Source of the DNA: Candidatus Thorarchaeota archaeon
GTDB lineage: Archaea; Asgardarchaeota; Heimdallarchaeia; Hodarchaeales; Hodarchaeaceae
DNA: 32,000 nt
Direction of reading: 5' to 3'
Assembly: GCA_048882505.1 (NCBI GenBank)
Contig: JBHLRO010000002.1
Span: 60,001 to 92,000, forward strand
Notes under the pieces: model-generated
What the model was told of the DNA's origin: nothing
Databases searched by the model: none
The model's input: only the letters and a program-made list of their open reading frames with translations
Shown here: positions 1,091 through 11,369 of the stretch, piece after piece
Position numbering within the stretch: the first letter of the stretch is position 1
How the letters are laid out: each line of letters begins with the position of its first letter
Position numbers and translations under genes: made by a program

Positions 1091-1675
1091 ATGGTGGAAT
1101 TGTTGGAATCAAAGCGAATAACAGTAGCATTGACTGGGGCATCAGGGGCCATTTATGGGGTTGAACTTGTAAAAGCGTTGGTTCAAAGTGGGATTGAGAC
1201 TTACGTGATCCTTAGCGAGTGGGCGGAGTATGTTTTGAAAGAAGAAACAAACACTAGCTTGGATCAGCTTAGGAATTTAACAGATCGTGTATATTCAAAC
1301 CGTGATATGGCTTCTCCCTTAGCCAGCAGCTCTACTCTGATCGATGGGATGGTGGTGATGCCTGCCACAGTCAAAACTGTGTCAAATATCGCTAACGCAA
1401 CAACAGGTGATTTAATTTCGAGAGCAGCCGATATTATGCTCAAAATGCAGCGTCCCCTTATTATTGGGATCAGGGAGACGCCCTTAAGCCCTCCTTGCCT
1501 TCATAACCTTGCCCAGCTTTCAACCTATGGTGTGGTAATAATGCCCTTGAGTCCGGGTTTTTACCATTACCCGAAAATAATACAGGACCTCGTAGATTTT
1601 ATTATTGGAAAAACTTTGGATATTCTTAGAATTCCAAATGAAAAATATCGGCGGTGGAAATCACAGGAATCTTGA
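1091..1675 (+). CDS. ubiX: Flavin prenyltransferase UbiX (prFMN synthase)
   Basis: TGASGAIYG, ASPLASSS, RAAD, RETPL and PGFYHYP motifs. Confidence 0.95.
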   Translation: MVELLESKRITVALTGASGAIYGVELVKALVQSGIETYVILSEWAEYVLKEETNTSLDQLRNLTDRVYSNRDMASPLASSSTLIDGMVVMPATVKTVSNIANATTGDLISRAADIMLKMQRPLIIGIRETPLSPPCLHNLAQLSTYGVVIMPLSPGFYHYPKIIQDLVDFIIGKTLDILRIPNEKYRRWKSQES

Positions 1676-1680
1676 GTACC

Positions 1681-2814
1681 ATGGAAGTAGACTACAACTC
1701 GGCCATTGAAGACCATTTGAAAAAAAACAACGTGACATCCGACCGTAAATTAGCACATCTCCAGATTTGTTTGGAACATGATGTGCAGGCTCGGAATGTC
1801 ACGACAGGTTTAGAAGACATCACTCTCATTCATCGGGCCACTACTGACCTCAACCTTGATGAAATCGACCTAGAAACCAAGATATTTGGGAAAAAACTGG
1901 CTTTACCTCTAATTTGTTCGGGAATGACTGGCGGTCACGATTTTGCAAAGAAACTGAATTTGTTTTTATCTCAGGCTGCCCACCAAACACGAATCGGTAT
2001 GGGGGTTGGTAGTCAACGCGCGGCGTTGGAAAAGGCAGATGTTCGAGATTCTTTTGTTGTGGTTCGAGAACAAGCACCTGAAGCCCTAGTCATAGGAAAC
2101 ATTGGGGCAGGCCAGGTTGCGCTGGGTCTAACTGAAGATGAATTCAACAGGATCATTTCCATGGTTCGCGCCACCGCGATTGCCATCCATTTCAATCCCT
2201 TACAAGAAGCCCTCCAACTCGAGGGTGATACTCACCTAGCTAATCTGCATGATAAAGTTGCAAAACTTGTCAAACAAAGCTCTGTTCCTGTAATAGCCAA
2301 AGAGGTGGGAGGAGGATTCAGTCTAAGTGATATTCTTAAAATAAAGAGCATGGGTTTTCAGGCCATTGATATTCAAGGCGTGGGAGGAACTTCATGGCCT
2401 GGAGTGGAATCCATTCGTACTACATCTCCGACCTTGAAAGCTGCAGGAGAGATCTTTTGGGATTGGGGTGTTCCTACCGTTCTGAGTACTATTCTCGCAG
2501 CCAATCATTTTGACGGAATCATCATTGGGTCAGGTGGGGTTCGTAATGGGCTGGATGTAGCGAAATTGCTTGCCTTAGGAGCGGATGCCGCGGGTATGGC
2601 AATTCCATTCTTATTTGCTACCCAACAGCAATCTAGTGAAGCTGTAGTCAATTTCATAATGGATATCGCCTTTCAGCTCCGTCTGGCTTGTTATCTTACC
2701 GGCAGCCAAAACCTCGAAGAATTGAAAACGACTCCTCTTCTTATTTCAGGTGAAACGGCCGAAACTCTTATAAAATATGGGATCGATCCCAAAACTTACC
2801 TTCATCGCCTATAG
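1681..2814 (+). CDS. fni: Type 2 isopentenyl-diphosphate delta-isomerase
   Basis: RKLAH, MTGG, GVGSQR, GNIG, HFNPLQE...EGD, KEVGGG, GGTSW and SGGVRNGLD motifs. ATG 1681 chosen over the ORF-track start at 1654, which overlaps ubiX. Confidence 0.97.
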   Translation: MEVDYNSAIEDHLKKNNVTSDRKLAHLQICLEHDVQARNVTTGLEDITLIHRATTDLNLDEIDLETKIFGKKLALPLICSGMTGGHDFAKKLNLFLSQAAHQTRIGMGVGSQRAALEKADVRDSFVVVREQAPEALVIGNIGAGQVALGLTEDEFNRIISMVRATAIAIHFNPLQEALQLEGDTHLANLHDKVAKLVKQSSVPVIAKEVGGGFSLSDILKIKSMGFQAIDIQGVGGTSWPGVESIRTTSPTLKAAGEIFWDWGVPTVLSTILAANHFDGIIIGSGGVRNGLDVAKLLALGADAAGMAIPFLFATQQQSSEAVVNFIMDIAFQLRLACYLTGSQNLEELKTTPLLISGETAETLIKYGIDPKTYLHRL

Positions 2815-2952
2815 AGTAACTATCAGGATCTTTATCTCGTGACCGTTCTTCAGATATACATCAATGTCAGGTTTTTCTGTTCTCTCAATTTTTCCTTATA
2901 TAAACTGGTGAGAATTGGAATCCATGATAATCCTCTTTTAAAATCCTATTGT

Positions 2953-3200
2953 TTATGATGCGGTTGGTCTGACAGTATAGTAGATTAACCCAAGGATAAA
3001 ACACAGCACACAAACAGCTATTCCATCTAGGATTAATTGTCCCCCCTAAGATCGATATCGGAATTAGAATGAACCCTGAAAGAAGAGACGTAAGCAAAAT
3101 TTTTTCTGCTAATAGGGCTTTTGATGAAATTTTGAAATGTTCGAGAAAAATCCTTGATTCTTTAACCCAAGGAAAGAGAGTGACAATGCCGATGGTGAGA
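2953..3200 (-). pseudogene. 3' fragment of a diverged copy of the ABC permease at 7709-9133
   Basis: Aligns to 7709-7958 (LTIGIVTLFPWVKESRIF...YYTVRPTAS* vs LTIVIITLFLWVKESKVF...YYTMKPTVA*), about 45/82 aa identical by eye, with a 2-nt deletion near 3042. Cut sharply at 3200. Confidence 0.9.
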
Positions 3201-3240
3201 CTTCTCATTTCTGGCGAAACTGCCGATACTCTCACAAAAT
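3201..3240 (+). repeat. Second, truncated copy of the fni 3' end (LLISGETADTLTK*)
   Basis: 33/40 nt identical to 2737-2776; 6 of the 7 differences are at third codon positions. Confidence 0.85.
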
Positions 3241-3336
3241 AAAAACTAATAATATATTACTGGATCTGACGGTAGCAGATTCTCATCTTATCCTTCCTTT
3301 GGACCATTATCGTCAAGATCACGCAGAAACGCACAT

Positions 3337-3522
3337 CTATGGAGCACCATTGTAGATAATAATAGCAGCTGTTAAAAAGAAAAGCAACACGCCACTAGCC
3401 TTGATTACAAAGATAGATGAAATCAAAGCAGCTCCTGCGAGAACCCATTCGATGGGCTTGAGTACTTGTGAAAATTAGACACGTAGTTCTGATAATTCTT
3501 CAAAAATTGAATGCGTACGCAT
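3337..3522 (-). pseudogene. Possible remnant of a small membrane protein
   Basis: MRTHSIFEELSELRV*FSQVLKPIEWVLAGAALISSIFVIKASGVLLFFLTAAIIIYNGAP*: hydrophobic, with an in-frame TAA at 3475-3477. No family recognised. Confidence 0.3.
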
Positions 3523-3591
3523 TTGTTGGTGGAGTTCTTCCTTAAGCTAAGTTTTTGGTATTCTTGCTATGAATTCCTATAACTCTCACGT

Positions 3592-4125
3592 TCACATTTC
3601 GATAACCGTTGTATTCCGCTCCCATCGCCGTAAGCCCGAAGGGCCCTCTGCCATTACACCAACATAGATTGAGATAGAGGGGTGCAACTGGTAAGAGACC
3701 TGAAATCTAATAGTGACTTCATCGTCTATAGCTAGGTTTAGATTCCCCTTATCAATTGTTACTTGAGAGACTTTCTGAATCTCCCCCAAGGTTTGATTAA
3801 ATACGAGGGAACCATTTTCAGCAGTCGTGAATTCCATTAGATCGCCATGATTTTGGATCAACCATAGGTAAACGAATTGGATTTGATATTGATCCCCTGA
3901 TGGCCTGGGATACCCCCCATAACTTAAGAAATAGGAGCGTGCTGTGAAATGCACCGTTCCATTTATATAAACCGCTTCATTTTCGATCCTAATTCCTTGA
4001 TCCGCATGAGGAAGAAGGCTAGTTCTATTTTGGGGGCGAACAAACCCAATTACTAATATTCCTATACCTATCAAGACAAGGATTATAATAAAGCCGAGGA
4101 GAATCCTTTTGTGCTGGACTCTTAT
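3592..4125 (-). CDS. Membrane-anchored, probably N-glycosylated surface protein of unknown function (canonical start missing)
   Basis: Frame extends 17 codons upstream of the ORF-track TTG start to an ATA (IRVQHKRILLGFIIILVLIGIGILVIGF = basic residues plus a signal anchor). Five N-X-S/T sequons (NRT, NGT, NGS, NQT, NTT). Confidence 0.6.
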   Translation of the reverse strand: MRVQHKRILLGFIIILVLIGIGILVIGFVRPQNRTSLLPHADQGIRIENEAVYINGTVHFTARSYFLSYGGYPRPSGDQYQIQFVYLWLIQNHGDLMEFTTAENGSLVFNQTLGEIQKVSQVTIDKGNLNLAIDDEVTIRFQVSYQLHPSISIYVGVMAEGPSGLRRWERNTTVIEM

Positions 4126-4157
4126 CTACTCCTATGATTTGTTATTAGATTCTTTTG

Positions 4158-4868
4158 TCATAATAACCCGCCTGTGGGGATCTGTGAGACTTTAATGTTG
4201 TCCCAATAAGCATAGCCATAGTTGCCCGAAGACCAACCACCACGAAAACCTATTGCTATGGGGCCACTCATGTAACTATAACCATAAGCGAATGGGCCTC
4301 CCAATGTGATCAAAGGCGAAGTATATTGTGAGTATTCTGCTTTTCGTGACACGTACATCCCTAAATACCAGGAATAGTAATAGATATAGGTAAAAATCTC
4401 TATTTCTACTTGCTGCCAGTCGTAACACCACCAACCGGTATGACTATAAACATTCTCTTCGTAAAGCTTTGTTGTTGTACCCTGATACCTCCGATAAACC
4501 TGTAAATACTTATAATAGAGTCTTACCTGGATGTAGTTATTACTATCCTGTAACACAGGATAGAAATCATGATATGCATACGTATATGAATTTGAGCGTC
4601 GAGTATAATAGGAATAGTACCTACCGTATCCGTTGTCGCTTTTGACTGGTTGATTTCCAATCGCATTCCAGTAATAAAGGACTTGCTTGTCCCCTGACGT
4701 ATCTTGCATATATAGTCTGCCGCGATCGGTTCCAGATGGATATGGGGACGGGCCTGTATGGGAAACAACATCGAATCTTGGCGATGATGCCTGTGTTAAA
4801 TAATGGAGGGACCACCCATTGACATTATTATCTTCAAAATCATCTTCCGTAGCATAGGAAATTGCTTC
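4158..4868 (-). pseudogene. C-terminal Tyr-rich beta-sandwich (ConA/LamG/DUF1080-like) part of the S8 protein, in frame after a single TAG
   Basis: Reads EAISYATEDDFEDNNVNGWS...GRLYMQDTSGDKQ... with no stop and joins ORF 4158-4709, ending GPIAIGF...YAYWDNIKV. DDFE...GW and W-DNI-V are typical borders of this fold (fold call is inference). Confidence 0.7.
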
Positions 4869-6167
4869 CTATGCATCCGTAATACCATGACCATAATAAT
4901 TATTCTGTCTAGAATACGTTGCATCGTAGTCGTAACTGGATGTGTCCTGACCACCAGGGTCACAATGGTATTTAATCAAATCTACTACGGTAGATCTAGA
5001 GGGTTTAGAGCCTCTAATGTTCTTTAACGTTTGGTAAACTTGCGCAGCTTGACCGGCAACTATTGGCGTGGAAAAACTAGTTCCTGATTTATCAGAATAC
5101 CCCCCGCCTTCTGATGGAGTATAAACTGGGTTTCCTGGAGAGGTAACGTCAAGATCGGGACCATATCCCGACCAACTAGGTCTTATACCTTCATCTGGTT
5201 CGTCACGGGTATTTACCGCTCCAACTGACATTACATTACTCAATTTTGCTGGATAATATATGATAGGACCCCCATCGTTCCCTGATCCTGCAATGAAGAC
5301 CGTTGTTCCATCGGCGAGTAAATCGTTTATGGGATCATCCCATCCAGAATAATGAGAAGGTTCACCCCAAGAAGCACTGATTATATCAGGATCGTGTCCC
5401 CAGGCATGTAACAATTCAAGCCCCCAAGCACTTGCCACCTCATCTATAGTGGTTCCAAAATCATTGAAATCGACCCATACTAAGTCAACGTAAGGAGCCA
5501 TCTTCAATAATGCCCCTGTTACTGGTGTTCCATGATTACTCCCATCATAGATACCGACCTTAAAATCCGGATCGTGTGAATAATCACTATATGTGGTCCA
5601 TTCACTTTCTGTGTTGATGTAGGTATTGGATGCTTCATAAGCATATTGCCAGTAACCAAATGGCCAGATTCCAACATAGTACTTATACCAATTAATGTCA
5701 ATGTACCACATATGACGCAAGGTCTCATCAGGTTTTCGTTTTATATCGTCGTGTGGGTAAACTCCACATCCTGTGAGGGCCACCGTTACACCTTCTCCAT
5801 AACGAGGCATGCTTATCATATCTAACCAATTTTGACTTCGATCATAATTAACCATTTGGTATGCCTTGACTCCTGAACTCATTAACTGTATTTTTGACTC
5901 ATTTCCTTCATTATCCTTCCTAACCACTATTTTTGCATAACTCTGATTTATTTCCGATGAGATTATTTTTGCCCGAGAAAATCTATTCGGATCTTTTGCA
6001 AGAACAGATTCAAAATCAGAACTGTTTCCAGAAAGAAGTGTTGTTGAAGCGTTATTCTCAAATGAAATGTCATTCTTACTCACATAAGGTGTTTCCAAGT
6101 AAGATGCCGCAATACTTATTTGGAAAAGCAGGATAAGAATGCACCCTACTATGGGTTTCCGATTCAT
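4869..6167 (-). CDS. Secreted subtilisin-like (S8) protease domain, ending at an in-frame TAG; catalytic Asp position is Gly
   Basis: Signal peptide MNRKPIVGCILILLFQISIAAS (ATG 6167); His motif NHGTPVTG, oxyanion GSGNDG, Ser motif SGTSFSTPIVAG, and C-terminal YGHGITDA. Confidence 0.88.
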   Translation of the reverse strand: MNRKPIVGCILILLFQISIAASYLETPYVSKNDISFENNASTTLLSGNSSDFESVLAKDPNRFSRAKIISSEINQSYAKIVVRKDNEGNESKIQLMSSGVKAYQMVNYDRSQNWLDMISMPRYGEGVTVALTGCGVYPHDDIKRKPDETLRHMWYIDINWYKYYVGIWPFGYWQYAYEASNTYINTESEWTTYSDYSHDPDFKVGIYDGSNHGTPVTGALLKMAPYVDLVWVDFNDFGTTIDEVASAWGLELLHAWGHDPDIISASWGEPSHYSGWDDPINDLLADGTTVFIAGSGNDGGPIIYYPAKLSNVMSVGAVNTRDEPDEGIRPSWSGYGPDLDVTSPGNPVYTPSEGGGYSDKSGTSFSTPIVAGQAAQVYQTLKNIRGSKPSRSTVVDLIKYHCDPGGQDTSSYDYDATYSRQNNYYGHGITDA

Positions 6168-6531
6168 TCGTTTATTGAAAAATCCTCCATTCTGGCTCCC
6201 ACAAATAATATGGAACTCTTTCTTCATTCAGTTACCTCCTTTAACCCTGTTGAATTGGCTTACTAAAGGACAAGACGTTGGCCTGATCGAGGAATCGTAT
6301 TTCTTAACCCAAATGAGTAGATTCAGGTATTAAAGGCATTGTAAGCGATTTTAGAACGTGAGATGCTTCGTAAGGACATTCAATGTTGATAAAATTCTAA
6401 AATCTCACGTTATCAAGAAACATTTCTCAAAGTATGTGATCGATCTAATTGCTGCGAATATGGTAGGAACAATAGTTGTATCTTAAGATGGTGAGATTTT
6501 TATACCCTAATTCCCTAAACGTCTTGAAGAT

Positions 6532-6798
6532 ATGAAAGGAATTAAAGTATACATTGACCCAAAGATTGAAGAAGAATTTCGAAAAACAGCAATGAAAATA
6601 TTTGGTTATGGAAAAGGATCTTTGAGTAAAGCAGCGGAGCAAGCCTTCAAGAAATGGATTCAAGAATATTCGAGTAACTTGGAAACATTAAGCATTCCAG
6701 ATGATCCAATTTATGAAATCAGAGGACAACTAGAAGGGATAACTCTCACATCTGTAGAACTCCAACATAAAGCAAAGGAATATCGTGTCGGAAAATAG
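6532..6798 (+). CDS. vapB: Antitoxin, CopG/ribbon-helix-helix-like (VapB type)
   Basis: 88 aa with an N-terminal beta-helix-helix pattern (IKVYIDPKIEEEFRKTA...SLSKAAEQAFKKW); directly upstream of a PIN gene. Confidence 0.75.
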   Translation: MKGIKVYIDPKIEEEFRKTAMKIFGYGKGSLSKAAEQAFKKWIQEYSSNLETLSIPDDPIYEIRGQLEGITLTSVELQHKAKEYRVGK

Positions 6799-6817
6799 TA
6801 GGTTGTCGGGAGTAATT

Positions 6818-7219
6818 ATGTTAATTGATGCAAACATATTCTTGGAAGTACAACTCAATCAAGAAAAAGCACAAGAAGCATCGGAAATATTAGAAGCAGT
6901 TTCTAATAATATCATCCAAGGGTATATCACTGATTTTACAATTGATTCAATTGTAATCATTATGGAACATTATAACAAATCACCAGCTGAAATAAAACGA
7001 TTCCTTGTCTCCTTACTTGCTTATGAAGCTCTAGATTTCTATCAGCTATCTATTTTCGACAAAATTAAGGCAACCGAGTATATGAGCTCAATACCGCTTG
7101 ATTTTGATGATGCCTGCATGTATCAAGCCATGCAGGTACTGAAAATCGATATACTTGCTTCCTTCGATAATGATTTTGATAGAATTCCTAATATAAGACG
7201 GTTAGAATCAGTGCCATGA
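6818..7219 (+). CDS. vapC: PIN-domain ribonuclease toxin
   Basis: MLIDANIFLE, LDFDDA and SFDNDFD acidic PIN motifs; intact frame. Confidence 0.9.
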   Translation: MLIDANIFLEVQLNQEKAQEASEILEAVSNNIIQGYITDFTIDSIVIIMEHYNKSPAEIKRFLVSLLAYEALDFYQLSIFDKIKATEYMSSIPLDFDDACMYQAMQVLKIDILASFDNDFDRIPNIRRLESVP

Positions 7220-7257
7220 TTTCTATCCACTACTTCTCTACTTCGTCAAAGGGTGAT

Positions 7258-7477
7258 ATTACAAGGTAATTCTTGAAAAGGAGCCGACGGGAGGATATAT
7301 CGCGATCTGCCCCTCATTTCAAGGGTGTTATAGTCAAGGAGAGATTATTGAGGACGCGTTAGATAACATTAAAGAAGCCATCGAGCTTTGTATTGTGGAT
7401 CTAAAAGTCAGGGGGTACCTATCCCCGATTCTAACCACTTTTTTGTGGGGAGTGTGGTCATTCTTCATGAATCCTAA
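7258..7477 (+). pseudogene. hicB: HicB-family antitoxin pseudogene (start codon lost, frameshift)
   Basis: YKVILEKEPTGGYIAICPSFQGCYSQGEIIEDALDNIKEAIELC is canonical HicB. GGTGAT-AT-TAC suggests a 1-nt loss from ATG. A frameshift in the G5 run at 7411-7415 restores RGVPIPDSNHFFVGSVVILHES*. Missed by the ORF track. Confidence 0.88.
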
Positions 7478-7596
7478 GCTTCTCGAATTTCGGGAAAAAA
7501 CACAATAACAGCTTTTGTAAAGCTAGGATATTTTTCCATCAGACAACGAGGGAGCCATGTTAGGTTACGACATCCAACAGATTCAGCAAGAAGACC
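7467..7596 (+). pseudogene. hicA: HicA-family mRNA interferase pseudogene (frameshifted, 3'-truncated)
   Basis: MNPKLLE/SGKNTITAFVKLGYFSIRQRGSHVRLRHP carries the GSH motif. Frameshift near 7487; cut off exactly where the fni copy at 7597 begins. Confidence 0.85.
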
Positions 7597-7674
7597 CTCC
7601 TCATTTCTGGGAAAACCGCAGAAACTCTCAAAAAATATGGAATCGATCCAACATCTTACCTTGATCGCAAGTAA
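7597..7674 (+). pseudogene. Displaced complete 3' end of fni (third copy; LLISGKTAETLKKYGIDPTSYLDRK*)
   Basis: Same 78-nt length as 2737-2814; 60/78 nt and 19/25 aa identical; ends at the homologous stop codon. Confidence 0.92.
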
Positions 7675-7708
7675 CACGACTAAAGGAACGCGCGAATGAG
7701 GGTACGTT

Positions 7709-9133
7709 TTATGCTACGGTTGGTTTCATGGTGTAATAGACCATCCCAAAAACAAAACAGAACATGTAAACACCTAGACCCCCCAAAAACACTATTCCAC
7801 CTCCTAAGATCCCAATAGGAACTAGAATGCATCCTGCTAGGACAAAAGAAAGCGCCATTTTTTCTGTCACTAAGGCCTTGAAGGAGATTTTGCAATTCAC
7901 AAGAAAGACCTTTGATTCTTTAACCCAAAGGAAGAGTGTAATAATGACGATGGTGAGAATTCCAACAGGGGTGAACCAGGGAAGGATATTAACAGCTAAC
8001 ACAAACCAGAAAACGAAAATTATGCCATAAACCAGCATGATGAGGGTATAATTTAAGGAAATACGGTATTTGTCCAACATGAGCAGGTCTTTGTGGAGAA
8101 GACTTACCACCTCATGGATGAATTGACTTTCGTATTGCAGAAAGTTAAACCATGAGGCTCTTCCTTGAAAAAAAGAAGTGAAAATGTAATAGCCAGTTAA
8201 AGCAAGTTCGATGTCCACCGAAAACGCATCGTGCAGGGGTTGCCTCTCATATAATCGGGCTAATGGGTCGATTTTCCCGTGAATAAGAAAGAAAAGTCCG
8301 AGAGTTACACCCCATTCGAGGATTAAGGTAATCGTGGTAGGAACCAGGTAGGTTTGAGACCAGGTCTTAGAAAGCGCCGCTAAGACTAGATAAATGATAT
8401 TGAACGGGGGGAGATACCACCAGTTCAAGATAATCTGTTCTAGGAGTGAAGAATTTATATTCTCAGATGTAGAGATGAAAACTAAGCCGCCTAAAATGAC
8501 AATTACACCAATCAAAGCCATTGCATTGTTAAGGAGAGAGAAGTTCTGTTCTCGCCATCTTGGTCTTAATTGTTCTAGCAGCTCCTCTGTAAAAGTGTAA
8601 ACAAACGTTCCCAGTAACATGAATAGCTGGATCCCCAAATATAGAGTGATAAGTACAAGTATTATGTTTGGCCAAGGGATTTGGGATCTAATCGCATACG
8701 ATATGACTGTGAAAGCCAAGAAGAATACATATAGCAGCACTTTGAGCGAATTTCGGAAGAATCCAATAAGAGCCCACGAGATGGGATCGTTCGATGTCTG
8801 GGATAGAATATTTAGATCCGTCTTATCAAAATGATAGGGGTTTGTCGCAAATAACGCCTCTTTCCCTGGAACAACAAAGGCACTACCAGCCAAGATCATC
8901 ATACCAAAAGTTAATACAAATAGACTGAGAATGACATGGGCCCGAGGGTTGGTATAGAGAAATAAAGGATAGTAGTGTCCCAATGTAGCTACAAAGAAAG
9001 AACAAATCAGAACTACTGCGTAAAATAAAAGGGACAATTTTGGGATTGAATCCCATGGTTTTTGGAGCTTCTTCCATTCGAGCCAGATAAACTGGGCAAG
9101 CAATCTGCGCTTACTAATCTTCTTCCGCTTCAT
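7709..9133 (-). CDS. ABC exporter permease (multi-pass membrane protein)
   Basis: About 474 aa with many hydrophobic segments; start overlaps the end of the ABC ATPase gene. Confidence 0.8.
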   Translation of the reverse strand: MKRKKISKRRLLAQFIWLEWKKLQKPWDSIPKLSLLFYAVVLICSFFVATLGHYYPLFLYTNPRAHVILSLFVLTFGMMILAGSAFVVPGKEALFATNPYHFDKTDLNILSQTSNDPISWALIGFFRNSLKVLLYVFFLAFTVISYAIRSQIPWPNIILVLITLYLGIQLFMLLGTFVYTFTEELLEQLRPRWREQNFSLLNNAMALIGVIVILGGLVFISTSENINSSLLEQIILNWWYLPPFNIIYLVLAALSKTWSQTYLVPTTITLILEWGVTLGLFFLIHGKIDPLARLYERQPLHDAFSVDIELALTGYYIFTSFFQGRASWFNFLQYESQFIHEVVSLLHKDLLMLDKYRISLNYTLIMLVYGIIFVFWFVLAVNILPWFTPVGILTIVIITLFLWVKESKVFLVNCKISFKALVTEKMALSFVLAGCILVPIGILGGGIVFLGGLGVYMFCFVFGMVYYTMKPTVA

Positions 9134-9917
9134 TATGCCAAGCCTCCAAAACAAACGATTCAAATGGTTTCGCTTTAGTTCGATCCTGTTTTATCTCTTC
9201 AATAGTCCCCTGCCAAACTATTTCCCCTGAATGAAGGAGAGCTACCTGAGTACATAATTCCTCTATATCGGTGAGAATATGTGAAGCAATGATGATCGAC
9301 CCTGGGATGGTTATATCTAGTTCTGGAATTCCTCGAAAGATGAATTCTTTGAGAAGTTTTTTGGTTTTTTTTCGGATTTTCACATCTAAATTGGAGAATG
9401 GCTCATCTAGAACTAGGATTTCAGGTTGGTGAATCAAAGCAGTACATAACATCAATTTTTGGAAATTTCCTGTAGAAAGATGTTTGACCAGAGTTTCGGT
9501 CCAGTTTTCTAGCTCAAAGAATTGCGAAAGATACTGGGAATACTGCTCGTAACCTTGTTCCTTCACTGCAAATAGCTTGCAGAGGAACTGAAGATATTCC
9601 TCCACAGTCAAAAATGGATAAATTTCCAGGGATTCTGGTACGTACCCAATTCTCGGTCGAATCTCTCGAAGGCCTGCTGATATTTTCCCATTTGTGACCA
9701 CCCTACGACCAAGGAGGTCGATATTTCCCTGTTGAATATTCACGAATCCCATTAAGCATCGAAATAATGTGGTTTTCCCAGCTCCATTTGGCCCGACGAC
9801 CCCTAGACACTCCTGGCTTTCTAGATTTAAATTCAGATTTTTAAGGACGCCCACGTTTCCATAGCTTTTAGTCAAATCATCAACACTTATTTGGTATTTG
9901 ATTTGTGTTGATACCAT
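9114..9917 (-). CDS. ABC transporter ATP-binding protein (CcmA/ABC-2 type)
   Basis: Walker A GPNGAGKTT, signature LSTGNFQK, Walker B ILVLDEP, H-loop ASHIL. Start uncertain (ATG 9917 or 9947). Confidence 0.93.
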   Translation of the reverse strand: MVSTQIKYQISVDDLTKSYGNVGVLKNLNLNLESQECLGVVGPNGAGKTTLFRCLMGFVNIQQGNIDLLGRRVVTNGKISAGLREIRPRIGYVPESLEIYPFLTVEEYLQFLCKLFAVKEQGYEQYSQYLSQFFELENWTETLVKHLSTGNFQKLMLCTALIHQPEILVLDEPFSNLDVKIRKKTKKLLKEFIFRGIPELDITIPGSIIIASHILTDIEELCTQVALLHSGEIVWQGTIEEIKQDRTKAKPFESFVLEAWHNEAEED

Positions 9918-10886
9918 AGAATTGAGCGGTGAATTACGCGATGACATTGAGGTACTCTCAAAGATGAGGTGGTAAGCGATGCGACATCCTTCTTGATCAG
10001 ATGTAGTGAAACTTAGTATTAGTGCCCTATTTAATATTTGGTATTGTGGAATCACTATATTTTAATCAATTCTGGGCGACTACCAGGTCAGAAGGTTCCG
10101 AGGTTGAAAAGCGTTACTGATTTTAGAGAATCCTTTTTCTATCTATGTGGATTTCGTTCTTTTTTATCATTTTTAGTACCAATTTCCATCTAGTTGGATT
10201 TATGGATAGGATTTCAAATACTGTAAATGTAACAGCCATATTCCTCCCTGGAGGATTAATCCTAGCCATTTACGGATGATGCACCCCGACACGGGGCTCT
10301 TTCTGCTTGACATCAGGATTATCCAAGTAGCAACAGGCATCACGAGCAGGACGCACTCCAAACGGCTGCTCCATACCTATCGAATCGAACGGGAGTATCC
10401 TGCAGTTTTTCTGCAGTTCGATACACCTCCGTCAACACCACGATTCCACCGATAATCCCCTAATCCAAGCTTTTCAGTGGTATGATCGCACCGCCGCTAG
10501 TATGACACGGAACATTCGATCCCCCAGAAACAATCGGTACACGTGGGAAGCGAAAGGAACACTAGATTTTAAAGCCCTAACTCATGAACTAGAACAAGTA
10601 GAAGACAACATCTGGAGATTATATCAGCACAATTATCAGTCAAAAGAGTTACACCAATTAAATGAAAGCCTAAATCATGGTCATTCCTCGCTCCGGTACC
10701 ATCTCCTCCTCATAGTCAATCTCATAGTGCAAGACTATCTTAGGGGACACCTCTAAATGGCATTGTACGTTTCAAGACAGGATTCCGTTGTTTTACTGAT
10801 GATACGAGAAGGCGTGGAAGTAAAATGCTCAAGGTTTCTGCTTAAGCCCCCTATCCAAAAGAGTTTTGGGGCATCCTTAAGACACA

Positions 10887-10900
10887 CGAAAATATATTAT
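10887..10900 (+). promoter_or_regulatory. Putative BRE/TATA box for the rpl7ae operon
   Basis: CGAAAATATATTAT about 90 nt upstream of the L7Ae ATG; position only. Confidence 0.4.
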
Positions 10901-10948
10901 TAGGCGACAAAGGCGGGTGACTCGCCCGACATTCACCGACCAAGGATT

Positions 10949-10978
10949 GGGTATGATTATTCGTTGGTAATAAGACCC
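10949..10978 (+). promoter_or_regulatory. Kink-turn in the rpl7ae 5' leader (putative autoregulatory L7Ae site)
   Basis: GGG-UAU-GA-UUAUU-cguuggu-AAUAA-GA-CCC: 3-bp C stem, 3-nt bulge, tandem G.A/A.G, 5-bp NC stem. Abuts the GGAGG Shine-Dalgarno at 10980-10984. Confidence 0.8.
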
Positions 10979-10991
10979 TGGAGGTCGTTAT

Positions 10992-11369
10992 ATGAGTAAA
11001 CCGTTTTATGTAAATTATGAACAGCCAGATGGTCTCGAAAGCGATGCTTTAGAGATTCTTGAAACCGTGAGTAGTGACGCCGTAAACATTCGGAAAGGTA
11101 CAAACGAAACTACTAAGAGTATAGAACGTGGCCTGGCCAAACTAGTCTTTATTGCCCTAGATGTTGAACCCCCAGAGATCGTGGCACATTTACCTTTGCT
11201 CTGTAAGGATAAGAAAATCGCCTATCTCTATGTAATTTCTAAAGAAGTCCTGGGAAATGCCTGCAATCTAGGGATCAAGACAGCTAGCTGTGCGATAGTT
11301 GGCGAAGGAGAACTAAAAGCAAGGATTGATACTCTTGCGGCTCGTATCCATGAGCTTGCTGGAATTTAA
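10992..11369 (+). CDS. rpl7ae: Ribosomal protein L7Ae (k-turn binding protein)
   Basis: IRKGTNETTKSIERG.AKLVFIA.DV.PPEIVAHLPLLC signature. Confidence 0.98.
   Translation: MSKPFYVNYEQPDGLESDALEILETVSSDAVNIRKGTNETTKSIERGLAKLVFIALDVEPPEIVAHLPLLCKDKKIAYLYVISKEVLGNACNLGIKTASCAIVGEGELKARIDTLAARIHELAGI

Follow-up and report, generated by a model that had tools for sequence, protein, structure and literature searches.

Integrative and cis-mobilisable elements accrete in tandem at the 3′ ends of protein-coding genes, and the aberrant excision of a prophage gives rise to specialised transduction. Free-standing homing-endonuclease cassettes can carry a replacement gene end, as is the case for the mORFs of fungal mitochondria. 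Here we compare such systems with a locus of an Asgard archaeon for which, to our knowledge, natural transformation is not known. The window, by which we mean the whole analysed stretch of 32,000 nt, covers positions 60,001 to 92,000 of contig JBHLRO010000002.1 (assembly GCA_048882505.1, Candidatus Thorarchaeota archaeon, order Hodarchaeales), and all coordinates without a contig or locus name count from its first nucleotide. The 464 bp at 2737-3200 comprise the end of fni, the gene for type 2 isopentenyl diphosphate (IPP) isomerase, and the 3′ end of a convergent ATP-binding cassette (ABC) permease gene. The same arrangement is found again further downstream. An earlier reading of the DNA, below called the original prediction, regarded the 464 bp as a piece of another host's chromosome carried in by an aberrantly excised integrative element. 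No known organisms are more closely related to eukaryotes than the Asgard archaea, whose ways of acquiring genes are poorly understood.

In the C-terminal displacement described for rhs loci, the dead copies that come after a live gene on the same strand derive from its own 3′ end, the old ends having been moved downstream and not deleted (Jackson et al., 2009, PMC2935791). Each dead end marks an incoming replacement end together with new downstream genes, and homologous recombination without any dedicated recombinase has been proposed (PMC2935791). Homology-facilitated illegitimate recombination (HFIR) of transformable bacteria (de Vries and Wackernagel in 2002 and Prudhomme in 2002) involves, as far as the account in PMC6382021 goes, one homologous anchor with foreign DNA attached, the far end being joined at a microhomology of a few bases. 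Aloposons (Wu et al., 2022, PMC8813620), elements that carry giant genes and target tRNAs, were also considered and are unrelated to the fni locus.

The 464 bp are of foreign origin and stand at a hotspot of insertion. The explanation we favour, with confidence that is evenly balanced and not higher, is that the end of fni was displaced without an integrase, by DNA imported through a homologous anchor, and not by mis-excision in the manner of a prophage.

Anatomy of the fni locus

The window belongs to a 4.3-Mb metagenome-assembled genome, 94.5% complete, which is labelled G000 in the comparisons. The live fni gene (1654..2814, plus strand; Pfam FMN_dh) ends in what we call tail A, its last 26 codons (LLISGETAETLIKYGIDPKTYLHRL and stop; 2737..2814, plus strand), which is homologous to the fni tails of all relatives. 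The spacer of the imported junction, 138 nt long (2815..2952), was delimited by repeat and alignment comparison. It is followed on the minus strand by a dead 3′ fragment of a diverged ABC permease gene (2953..3204), consisting of the last 82 codons with a 2-nt deletion near 3036. Next comes tail B, a dead and partial fni tail of 41 nt (3201..3241, plus strand; LLISGETADTLTK and stop), and the cargo of block B (3242..7596) separates it from tail C (7597..7674, plus strand), a full, unbroken but dead copy of the last 26 fni codons. Behind tail C are a spacer of 34 nt (7675..7708), the intact permease gene of a rare ABC module (7709..9163, minus strand, 484 codons) and the gene for the partnering ABC ATPase (9114..10055, minus strand).

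The layout of 2737-3204 is that of 7597-7962, namely the last 26 codons of fni, a spacer and the last 82 codons of a convergent permease. The repeat finder and alignment gave 81% identity between 2737-2808 and 7597-7668, 71% between 2952-3020 and 7708-7776, and 74% between 3042-3204 and 7800-7962. The original prediction had been right about the repeated layout (which it placed at 2737-3200 and 7597-7958), the unequal spacers of 138 and 34 nt and the 2-nt deletion. Over their full length tails A and C agree at 60/78 nt, and tail B agrees with each of them at 33/40 nt (83%). A block of 41 nt is common to all three copies (2737-2777, 3201-3241 and 7597-7637; 78-83% in pairwise comparisons) and has an identical first base in each. 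The permease fragment matches the C-terminus of the intact permease at 44/81 aa (70% nt), the earlier value having been about 45/82 aa. Its minus strand reads LTIGIV...ILGG, then a frameshift, then QLILDG...RPTAS and stop; one base is left between the frames, which indicates the deletion of 2 nt.

Both dead tails are joined on the same base (3201 and 7597), the first of a block coding for Leu-Leu-Ile-Ser-Gly, and both are preceded by genes cut in the middle, the permease before tail B and hicA before tail C. The core of the fni tail starts after ACTCCT with CTTCTTATTTCAGGTGAAAC, and tails B and C carry variants of it. Homology to the permease ends at GGTGAGA (3204) and homology to the fni tail begins with CTTCTC (3201). 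The two overlap by at most 4 nt, so that the fragment indeed ends where the second fni copy begins, as had been noticed earlier. With proxies for the parents, the joints show no more than 4 nt of microhomology. The first ~15 nt past the stop codon are similar after tail A, after tail C and after fni of the related genome G016. The sequences flanking the three tail copies are mutually unrelated, and no conserved arms were found beside the cores. No conserved motif was seen to the left of the dead tails at fni.

BLAST of the rest of the 4.3-Mb genome revealed no further fni tails. Tail B was also considered as a decayed full-length tail, and this was rejected as 3242-3300 resembled the second tail half no better than chance (p 0.02-0.37, control windows being equal). 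Similarly, a candidate fourth tail near 10066, TCAATTCTGGGCGAC, is faintly tail-like and had no BLAST support. No RNA family was detected by an Rfam scan of 2600-11100, and there is no tRNA in the window.

Selection history of the permease fragment

The ratio of non-synonymous to synonymous substitution rates (dN/dS) was calculated according to Nei-Gojobori with bootstrap 95% confidence intervals (CI), approximately 0.6 being what a pair should give in which one copy died at the duplication. The fragment and the intact permease gave a dN/dS of 0.29 (CI 0.14-0.55), well below 1 as had been anticipated for the copies; a value of 0.6 or above occurred in 1.1% of the replicates and of 1 or above in none. 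Counted with three outgroups, the unique residue changes number 12 vs 8, 13 vs 8 and 8 vs 8, and the branch of the fragment is not accelerated. The fragment's only defects are one frameshift and a strain-variable 9-nt indel, with zero stop codons. Judged from these substitutions, the permease fragment was a working gene until it was cut.

The proportion of synonymous differences (pS) is 0.52 between tails A and C and 0.53 between the permease pieces. Such equal values indicate that the tail, spacer and permease piece were passed down together, as one linked unit, by a lineage whose gene order was the same. Tail C differs from the tail of G016 with a pS of 0.55 and a proportion of non-synonymous differences (pN) of 0.12. 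The divergence of the tail, spacer and permease end thus took place jointly, in two lineages and while the genes were working, and the cut in one copy was recent.

Comparison with related genomes

In at least 10 of the 21 other genomes of the genus, the k-turn leader and the beginning of rpl7ae lie within 100-270 nt behind fni, and in most relatives rpl7ae (10992..11369, plus strand, in the window) comes directly after fni. In G006, G016, G017, G009 and G011, as well as in G000, the gap between the two genes holds 1.8-8.4 kb of unrelated genes. Throughout this Heimdall-group genus, the fni-rpl7ae gap is a hotspot of insertion. Four of the 21 genomes have the permease, always away from fni, and the 61 genomes compared from the rest of the class all lack it. 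Only five relatives of the permease family were found among 5.8 billion proteins, their database names pointing to Heimdall-group Asgard archaea, and its profile matched a single contig among the JGI metagenome contigs, in which no fni tail adjoins the permease. Adjacency of fni and the permease was observed only in the two copies of this genome. The original prediction had taken 7597-7958 for the ancestral flank of the host, and this part of it did not stand: G016 does not have the segment, at least ten genomes of the genus pass from fni to rpl7ae, and the permease is located elsewhere.

The closest relative is G016, with a backbone of 90-98% nucleotide identity and backbone proteins 94-98% identical; its fni protein is 86% identical, compared to 63-69% aa identity for the relatives. 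Nucleotide identity between G000 and G016 is 95-100% over 154-1799 and approximately 79% over 1800-2814, with dense mismatches from 1800 onwards, and the pS of fni rises from 0.07 before 1795 to 0.61 after it. A sharp recombination boundary is located at 1768-1800 inside fni, which supports DNA transfer between lineages. The equal pS values bear out the earlier claim that the DNA came from a lineage with the same gene order. Also the 940 nt of fni body 5′ of tail A are replaced relative to G016. It had been predicted that 7597-7958 would group with close relatives of the host and 2737-3200 with a different lineage. This grouping did not emerge: neither tail groups with G016 (55/78 nt for A and 61/78 nt for C), and the nearest relative of the fragment is the resident permease and not that of another sampled lineage.

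The segment 2815-10421 is wholly lineage-specific, and the homology between the ABC modules of G000 and G016 is limited to two genes at 7720-9910. The G000-specific segment has a unique non-coding end (10056..10421), which lies within a strain-variable indel of 627 nt (9964-10590). Synteny with G016 returns abruptly at 10422, inside a gene of 245 codons which is whole in G016. The copy in G000 is without its first 135 codons and consists of the 3′ remnant (codons 136-245; 10422..10757, plus strand). The simplest reading would be that the G000 lineage replaced 1800-10421, with a left crossover by fni homology and a non-homologous right joint, the polarity of the replacement being suggested by the truncated gene at 10422.

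When the 22 genomes of the genus were all searched with the DNA of 2815-7600, its first 390 nt had no match apart from the resident permease; a search of the JGI metagenome contigs with the fragment peptide, made for the donor, found no relative. A second orphan piece of the C-terminus of the permease family, 27 residues long and 67% identical, is located in contig 6 of G000 (74028-74108; locus L010:1540-1620), 5′ of a zinc-type dehydrogenase gene and with no fni tail nearby.

Independent sequence data

The junction is genuine and not an assembly artefact, and two independent studies contain it. From the probable source run, one Logan contig spans 1770-10703 with zero differences, and an independent study from 2022 carries identical pieces, including 3027-3828 across the joint of the fragment and tail B. 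Logan contigs break where the strains part, at approximately 1770-1799 and at approximately 10674-10703, and one run of the same study also has a G016-like contig. The break at the recombination boundary of fni indicates co-occurring strains with only the left flank in common. Joints of 2736 to 7597 or of 3200 to 7597 were not found among the contigs of four runs, contigs being known to drop rare variants. One X2 joint (7625 to 10885, with 28 nt on one side) is best read as the fni-rpl7ae contig of another species. Two deletions were seen in an independent metagenome, one of 9 nt at 3047 inside the dead permease fragment and one of 627 nt (9964-10590), which removes the region 5′ of the ABC ATPase gene and the joint of 10421 and 10422.

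Search for recombinases and nucleases

No recombinase or homing-endonuclease domain was detected in the open reading frames (ORFs) of the island, 2815-10421, using Pfam, NCBIfam and PADLOC. In six-frame searches of the whole genome, the serine recombinase family PF00239 had no match, the tyrosine recombinase family PF00589 had one match, on contig 5 (211534-212040), and LAGLIDADG and HNH matches were found only at loci outside the window. There is no LAGLIDADG or HNH endonuclease between fni and rpl7ae; GIY-YIG and other families were not searched separately.

The truncated gene at 10422 belongs to a family of 245-295 codons present in 17 of the 22 genomes of the genus, G000 included, each with a few full copies and many 5′-truncated C-terminal remnants, often with stop codons. 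Members are found at 10424-10753 of the window, at L047:1998-2735 in G016, and on contig 2 (387977-388792) and contig 24 (3586-4404) of G000; in G008 a remnant lies 130 nt 5′ of fni. The conserved motifs LLHDF..H, HH and YDR look HD-like by eye only, and the N-domain is weakly RAMP-like (Csm3/Cmr; Foldseek E 2e-3 with a model of mean pLDDT 59). The family had no match in Pfam, PDB or Atlas. It could be a selfish nuclease gene; as a candidate for the missing enzyme, the family showed no consistent link to dead tails in G000.

Dead gene ends behind other genes

In G000, 2,569 long ORFs were scanned for downstream same-strand copies of their own 3′ ends, the counts being lower bounds. At least eight genes have partial copies of their own last 17-31 codons downstream on the same strand. 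Among them, an smc-like gene is trailed by four dead tails and a tfb-like gene by three. Loci of this kind are found on contig 7 (722-12347), contig 11 (48977-59696), contig 2 (115789-119929 and 360198-363647) and contigs 1, 4 and 37. In the last-named region of contig 2, a LAGLIDADG match (361904-362131) is situated between the end of the gene at 360198-361746 and a dead tail at 363531. A motif noticed to the left of the dead tails at the smc-like locus was rejected, since it probably reflects longer tail copies whose coding sequence is weakly conserved.

In G011, fni is followed by 7.1 kb of ordinary metabolic genes which end in the rpl7ae leader and 14 codons fused to a fni-tail fragment. 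The fused copy (locus L067 on contig 3, approximately 7740-7920, minus strand) is 89% identical to the intact rpl7ae located 1.2 kb further.

Origin of the insertion

If the end of fni was displaced by homology-anchored import, the 464 bp would be the head of a foreign insertion of 4,860 bp (2737-7596) into the last 26 codons of fni. This head would comprise a replacement fni tail, which is now the live one, and the donor's sequence behind fni, that is, the spacer and the 3′ end of the convergent ABC permease. DNA from a relative diverged by approximately 20-30% would have recombined through homology in fni. At its far end a non-homologous joint, with microhomology of 4 nt or less, would have linked it to the resident tail at the base where the Leu-Leu-Ile-Ser-Gly block begins, and that tail, now dead, would thereby have been shifted downstream. 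Being unbroken and having mostly synonymous changes, tail C was probably displaced last. This in turn suggests that 2737-7596 arrived as one composite block, the inner joint between the fragment and tail B having been formed earlier in another genome. The use of one and the same base for both joints implies a site-specific break, or else a trans-acting enzyme. If a homing-type nuclease cut the block that codes for Leu-Leu-Ile-Ser-Gly and the repair was one-ended, exactly such an anatomy would result; no such gene of a known family is present here.

Several observations weigh against this explanation. Two joints on one base are not expected of plain illegitimate recombination, and a site-specific recombinase fits them at least equally well. 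In their geometry, the three copies of 41 nt match what attL, an internal att and attR would form in elements accreted in tandem. The one pointer to polarity at 1800 is the truncated gene at 10422, and G016 could be the recombinant on the left side. Neither the donor genome nor the allele before insertion was found among the genus genomes, the JGI contigs and the public runs, and the adjacency of fni and the permease is known solely from the two copies of this genome. In addition, a recombinase could reside in the part missing from the 94.5% complete genome.

Of the other explanations, a chimera assembled from co-occurring strains of the metagenome is scarcely credible: related strains do co-occur, the Logan contigs break on both sides of the locus and the same study has a G016-like contig in one of its runs, but a single contig covers 1770-10703 without differences, the independent study matches across the joint of the fragment and tail B, and the copies, being 70-83% alike, are too unlike for assemblers to merge or collapse. 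It is improbable, if less so, that the arrangement stems from an old tandem duplication reaching from the fni tail to the middle of the permease, in this lineage or in that of the donor, with divergence in place and the later arrival of block B. One unequal crossover would yield the order tail-spacer-fragment and tail-spacer-permease, the fragment is closest to the resident permease (54% aa vs 43% to the permease of G016), and at approximately 15% neutral change 81 codons remain free of stops 27% of the time. The dN/dS of 0.29, however, excludes the expected value of about 0.6 (1.1% of bootstraps), and the fragment branch is without an excess of amino acid changes. Because of this ratio and the lack of acceleration, local duplication followed by neutral decay looks unlikely. 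Moreover, the divergence of the copies (pS ~0.5) is 5-10 times that of the G000-G016 backbone (pS 0.06-0.13), yet the arrangement is missing in G016, and duplication leaves both tail B and the joint of hicA and tail C unexplained.

The original prediction assumed an element with attachment (att) sites and an integrase, residing at 3201-7596 in fni of another host, which would have been excised aberrantly between its left att site and a secondary site in the permease of that host, taking along the ends of both fni and the permease, and would then have integrated at the resident tail C; a variant has two att-bounded elements accreted in tandem with a recombinase acting in trans. We consider this doubtful, although several features speak for it. 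The topology of body and tail A, spacer and fragment, tail B and cargo, and tail C works exactly, and the shared 41-nt block (~83%) starts on the same base in three copies. Tail C is unbroken, as expected if displaced last, and the history of the fragment as a working gene fits a captured flank. The order of events in the two-host chain agrees with our reconstruction, whereas the enzyme is not borne out. There is no integrase in the island, and the genome has one tyrosine and no serine recombinase. The supposed element ends inside a truncated hicA, the arms beside the three cores are unrelated, and the secondary site has only TTC in common with the core. Site-specific integration is further disfavoured because the 940 nt of fni body to the left of the supposed att site are also replaced and diverged from G016. 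Tail C with the permease is not ancestral host DNA, and the cargo is no unit found elsewhere but a patchwork of toxin-antitoxin modules, each mobile by itself. Finally, dead ends behind at least eight different genes would demand many integrase specificities.

Cargo between tails B and C

Block B starts with three minus-strand ORFs, the first for a probably secreted protein without known function (3592-4074), the second Tyr-rich and probably secreted as well (4158-4709), and the third for an S8 protease (4869-6227). On the plus strand these are followed by vapBC, a PIN toxin and its antitoxin (6467-7235), and by hicB/hicA pseudogenes (7258-7596). The vapBC module of approximately 750 bp is 86-87% identical at the nucleotide level to copies in five distant genomes of the genus and 76% to one in a sixth, with all flanks unrelated. 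The homology ends at the same two edges, and the fni proteins of those five genomes are only ~65% identical. Small and lacking a recombinase, this cassette has been spreading recently. The intact relatives of hicB/hicA in G012 and G002 (77-82% nt) reveal a frameshift in an A-run near 7505 of the hicA copy, and alignment with them shows that hicA is cut mid-gene exactly at tail C (7596), with the loss of its last ~36 codons.

Possible wider occurrence

The 464-bp scar itself is non-functional DNA, and its value is that of a record of integrase-free gene flow at an Asgard hotspot and of one among several loci whose joints suggest a site-specific step. The locus preserves the gene end and flank of a donor, a recombination boundary in the anchor gene and two dead resident tails. 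Accessory genes, including an ABC exporter, a protease and toxin-antitoxin pairs, were gained behind an essential gene of the lipid pathway, with no integrase gene in the insert. The same signature recurs behind several conserved genes of G000, and this may be a major route of gene gain in the group. As a tentative proposal, which we rate as possible rather than probable, Asgard archaea of the Hodarchaeales type might have an integrase-free, base-precise system which acts at the last conserved coding block of housekeeping genes and stacks foreign blocks with replacement ends. Its targets would be fni, the smc-like gene, the tfb-like gene and others, and the agent would possibly be a nuclease or recombinase acting in trans. 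If this is true, the fni scar is a by-product recording transfer between lineages diverged by approximately 25%.

Comparison with known systems

Among the described systems, tandem accretion resembles the fni locus in that direct repeats of a gene's 3′ end bound the blocks and the complete end of the live gene is supplied by the insert. It differs in that the fni island has no integrase, its blocks end in truncated genes, there are no conserved arms and the upstream gene body is replaced. In homing cassettes, similarly to what may have happened here, a break at a fixed site in a conserved coding block and repair from the donor allele give a new tail, cargo and a stranded old tail, but between fni and rpl7ae there is no endonuclease gene of a known family. 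With HFIR, as far as it is described in PMC6382021, the locus shares the homologous anchor, with its boundary at 1768-1800, and a conversion tract, the recombinant genome being inferred in the present case. The joints of HFIR, according to the same account, are scattered and usually delete recipient DNA, whereas here the same base was used twice and the recipient tail was kept. For the far end, HFIR calls for 3-10 nt of microhomology, and at fni the value against proxy parents is 4 nt at the most.

The rhs loci (PMC2935791) are similar to fni in having a live tail, here A, and dead tails on the same strand, here B and C, each heading different downstream DNA. Unlike in rhs, the anchor is the gene of a housekeeping enzyme and its tails are near-synonymous, not alternative toxin tips. 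The dead copies of fni start on one fixed base, while the core fragments of rhs vary in length, and the host is an Asgard archaeon.

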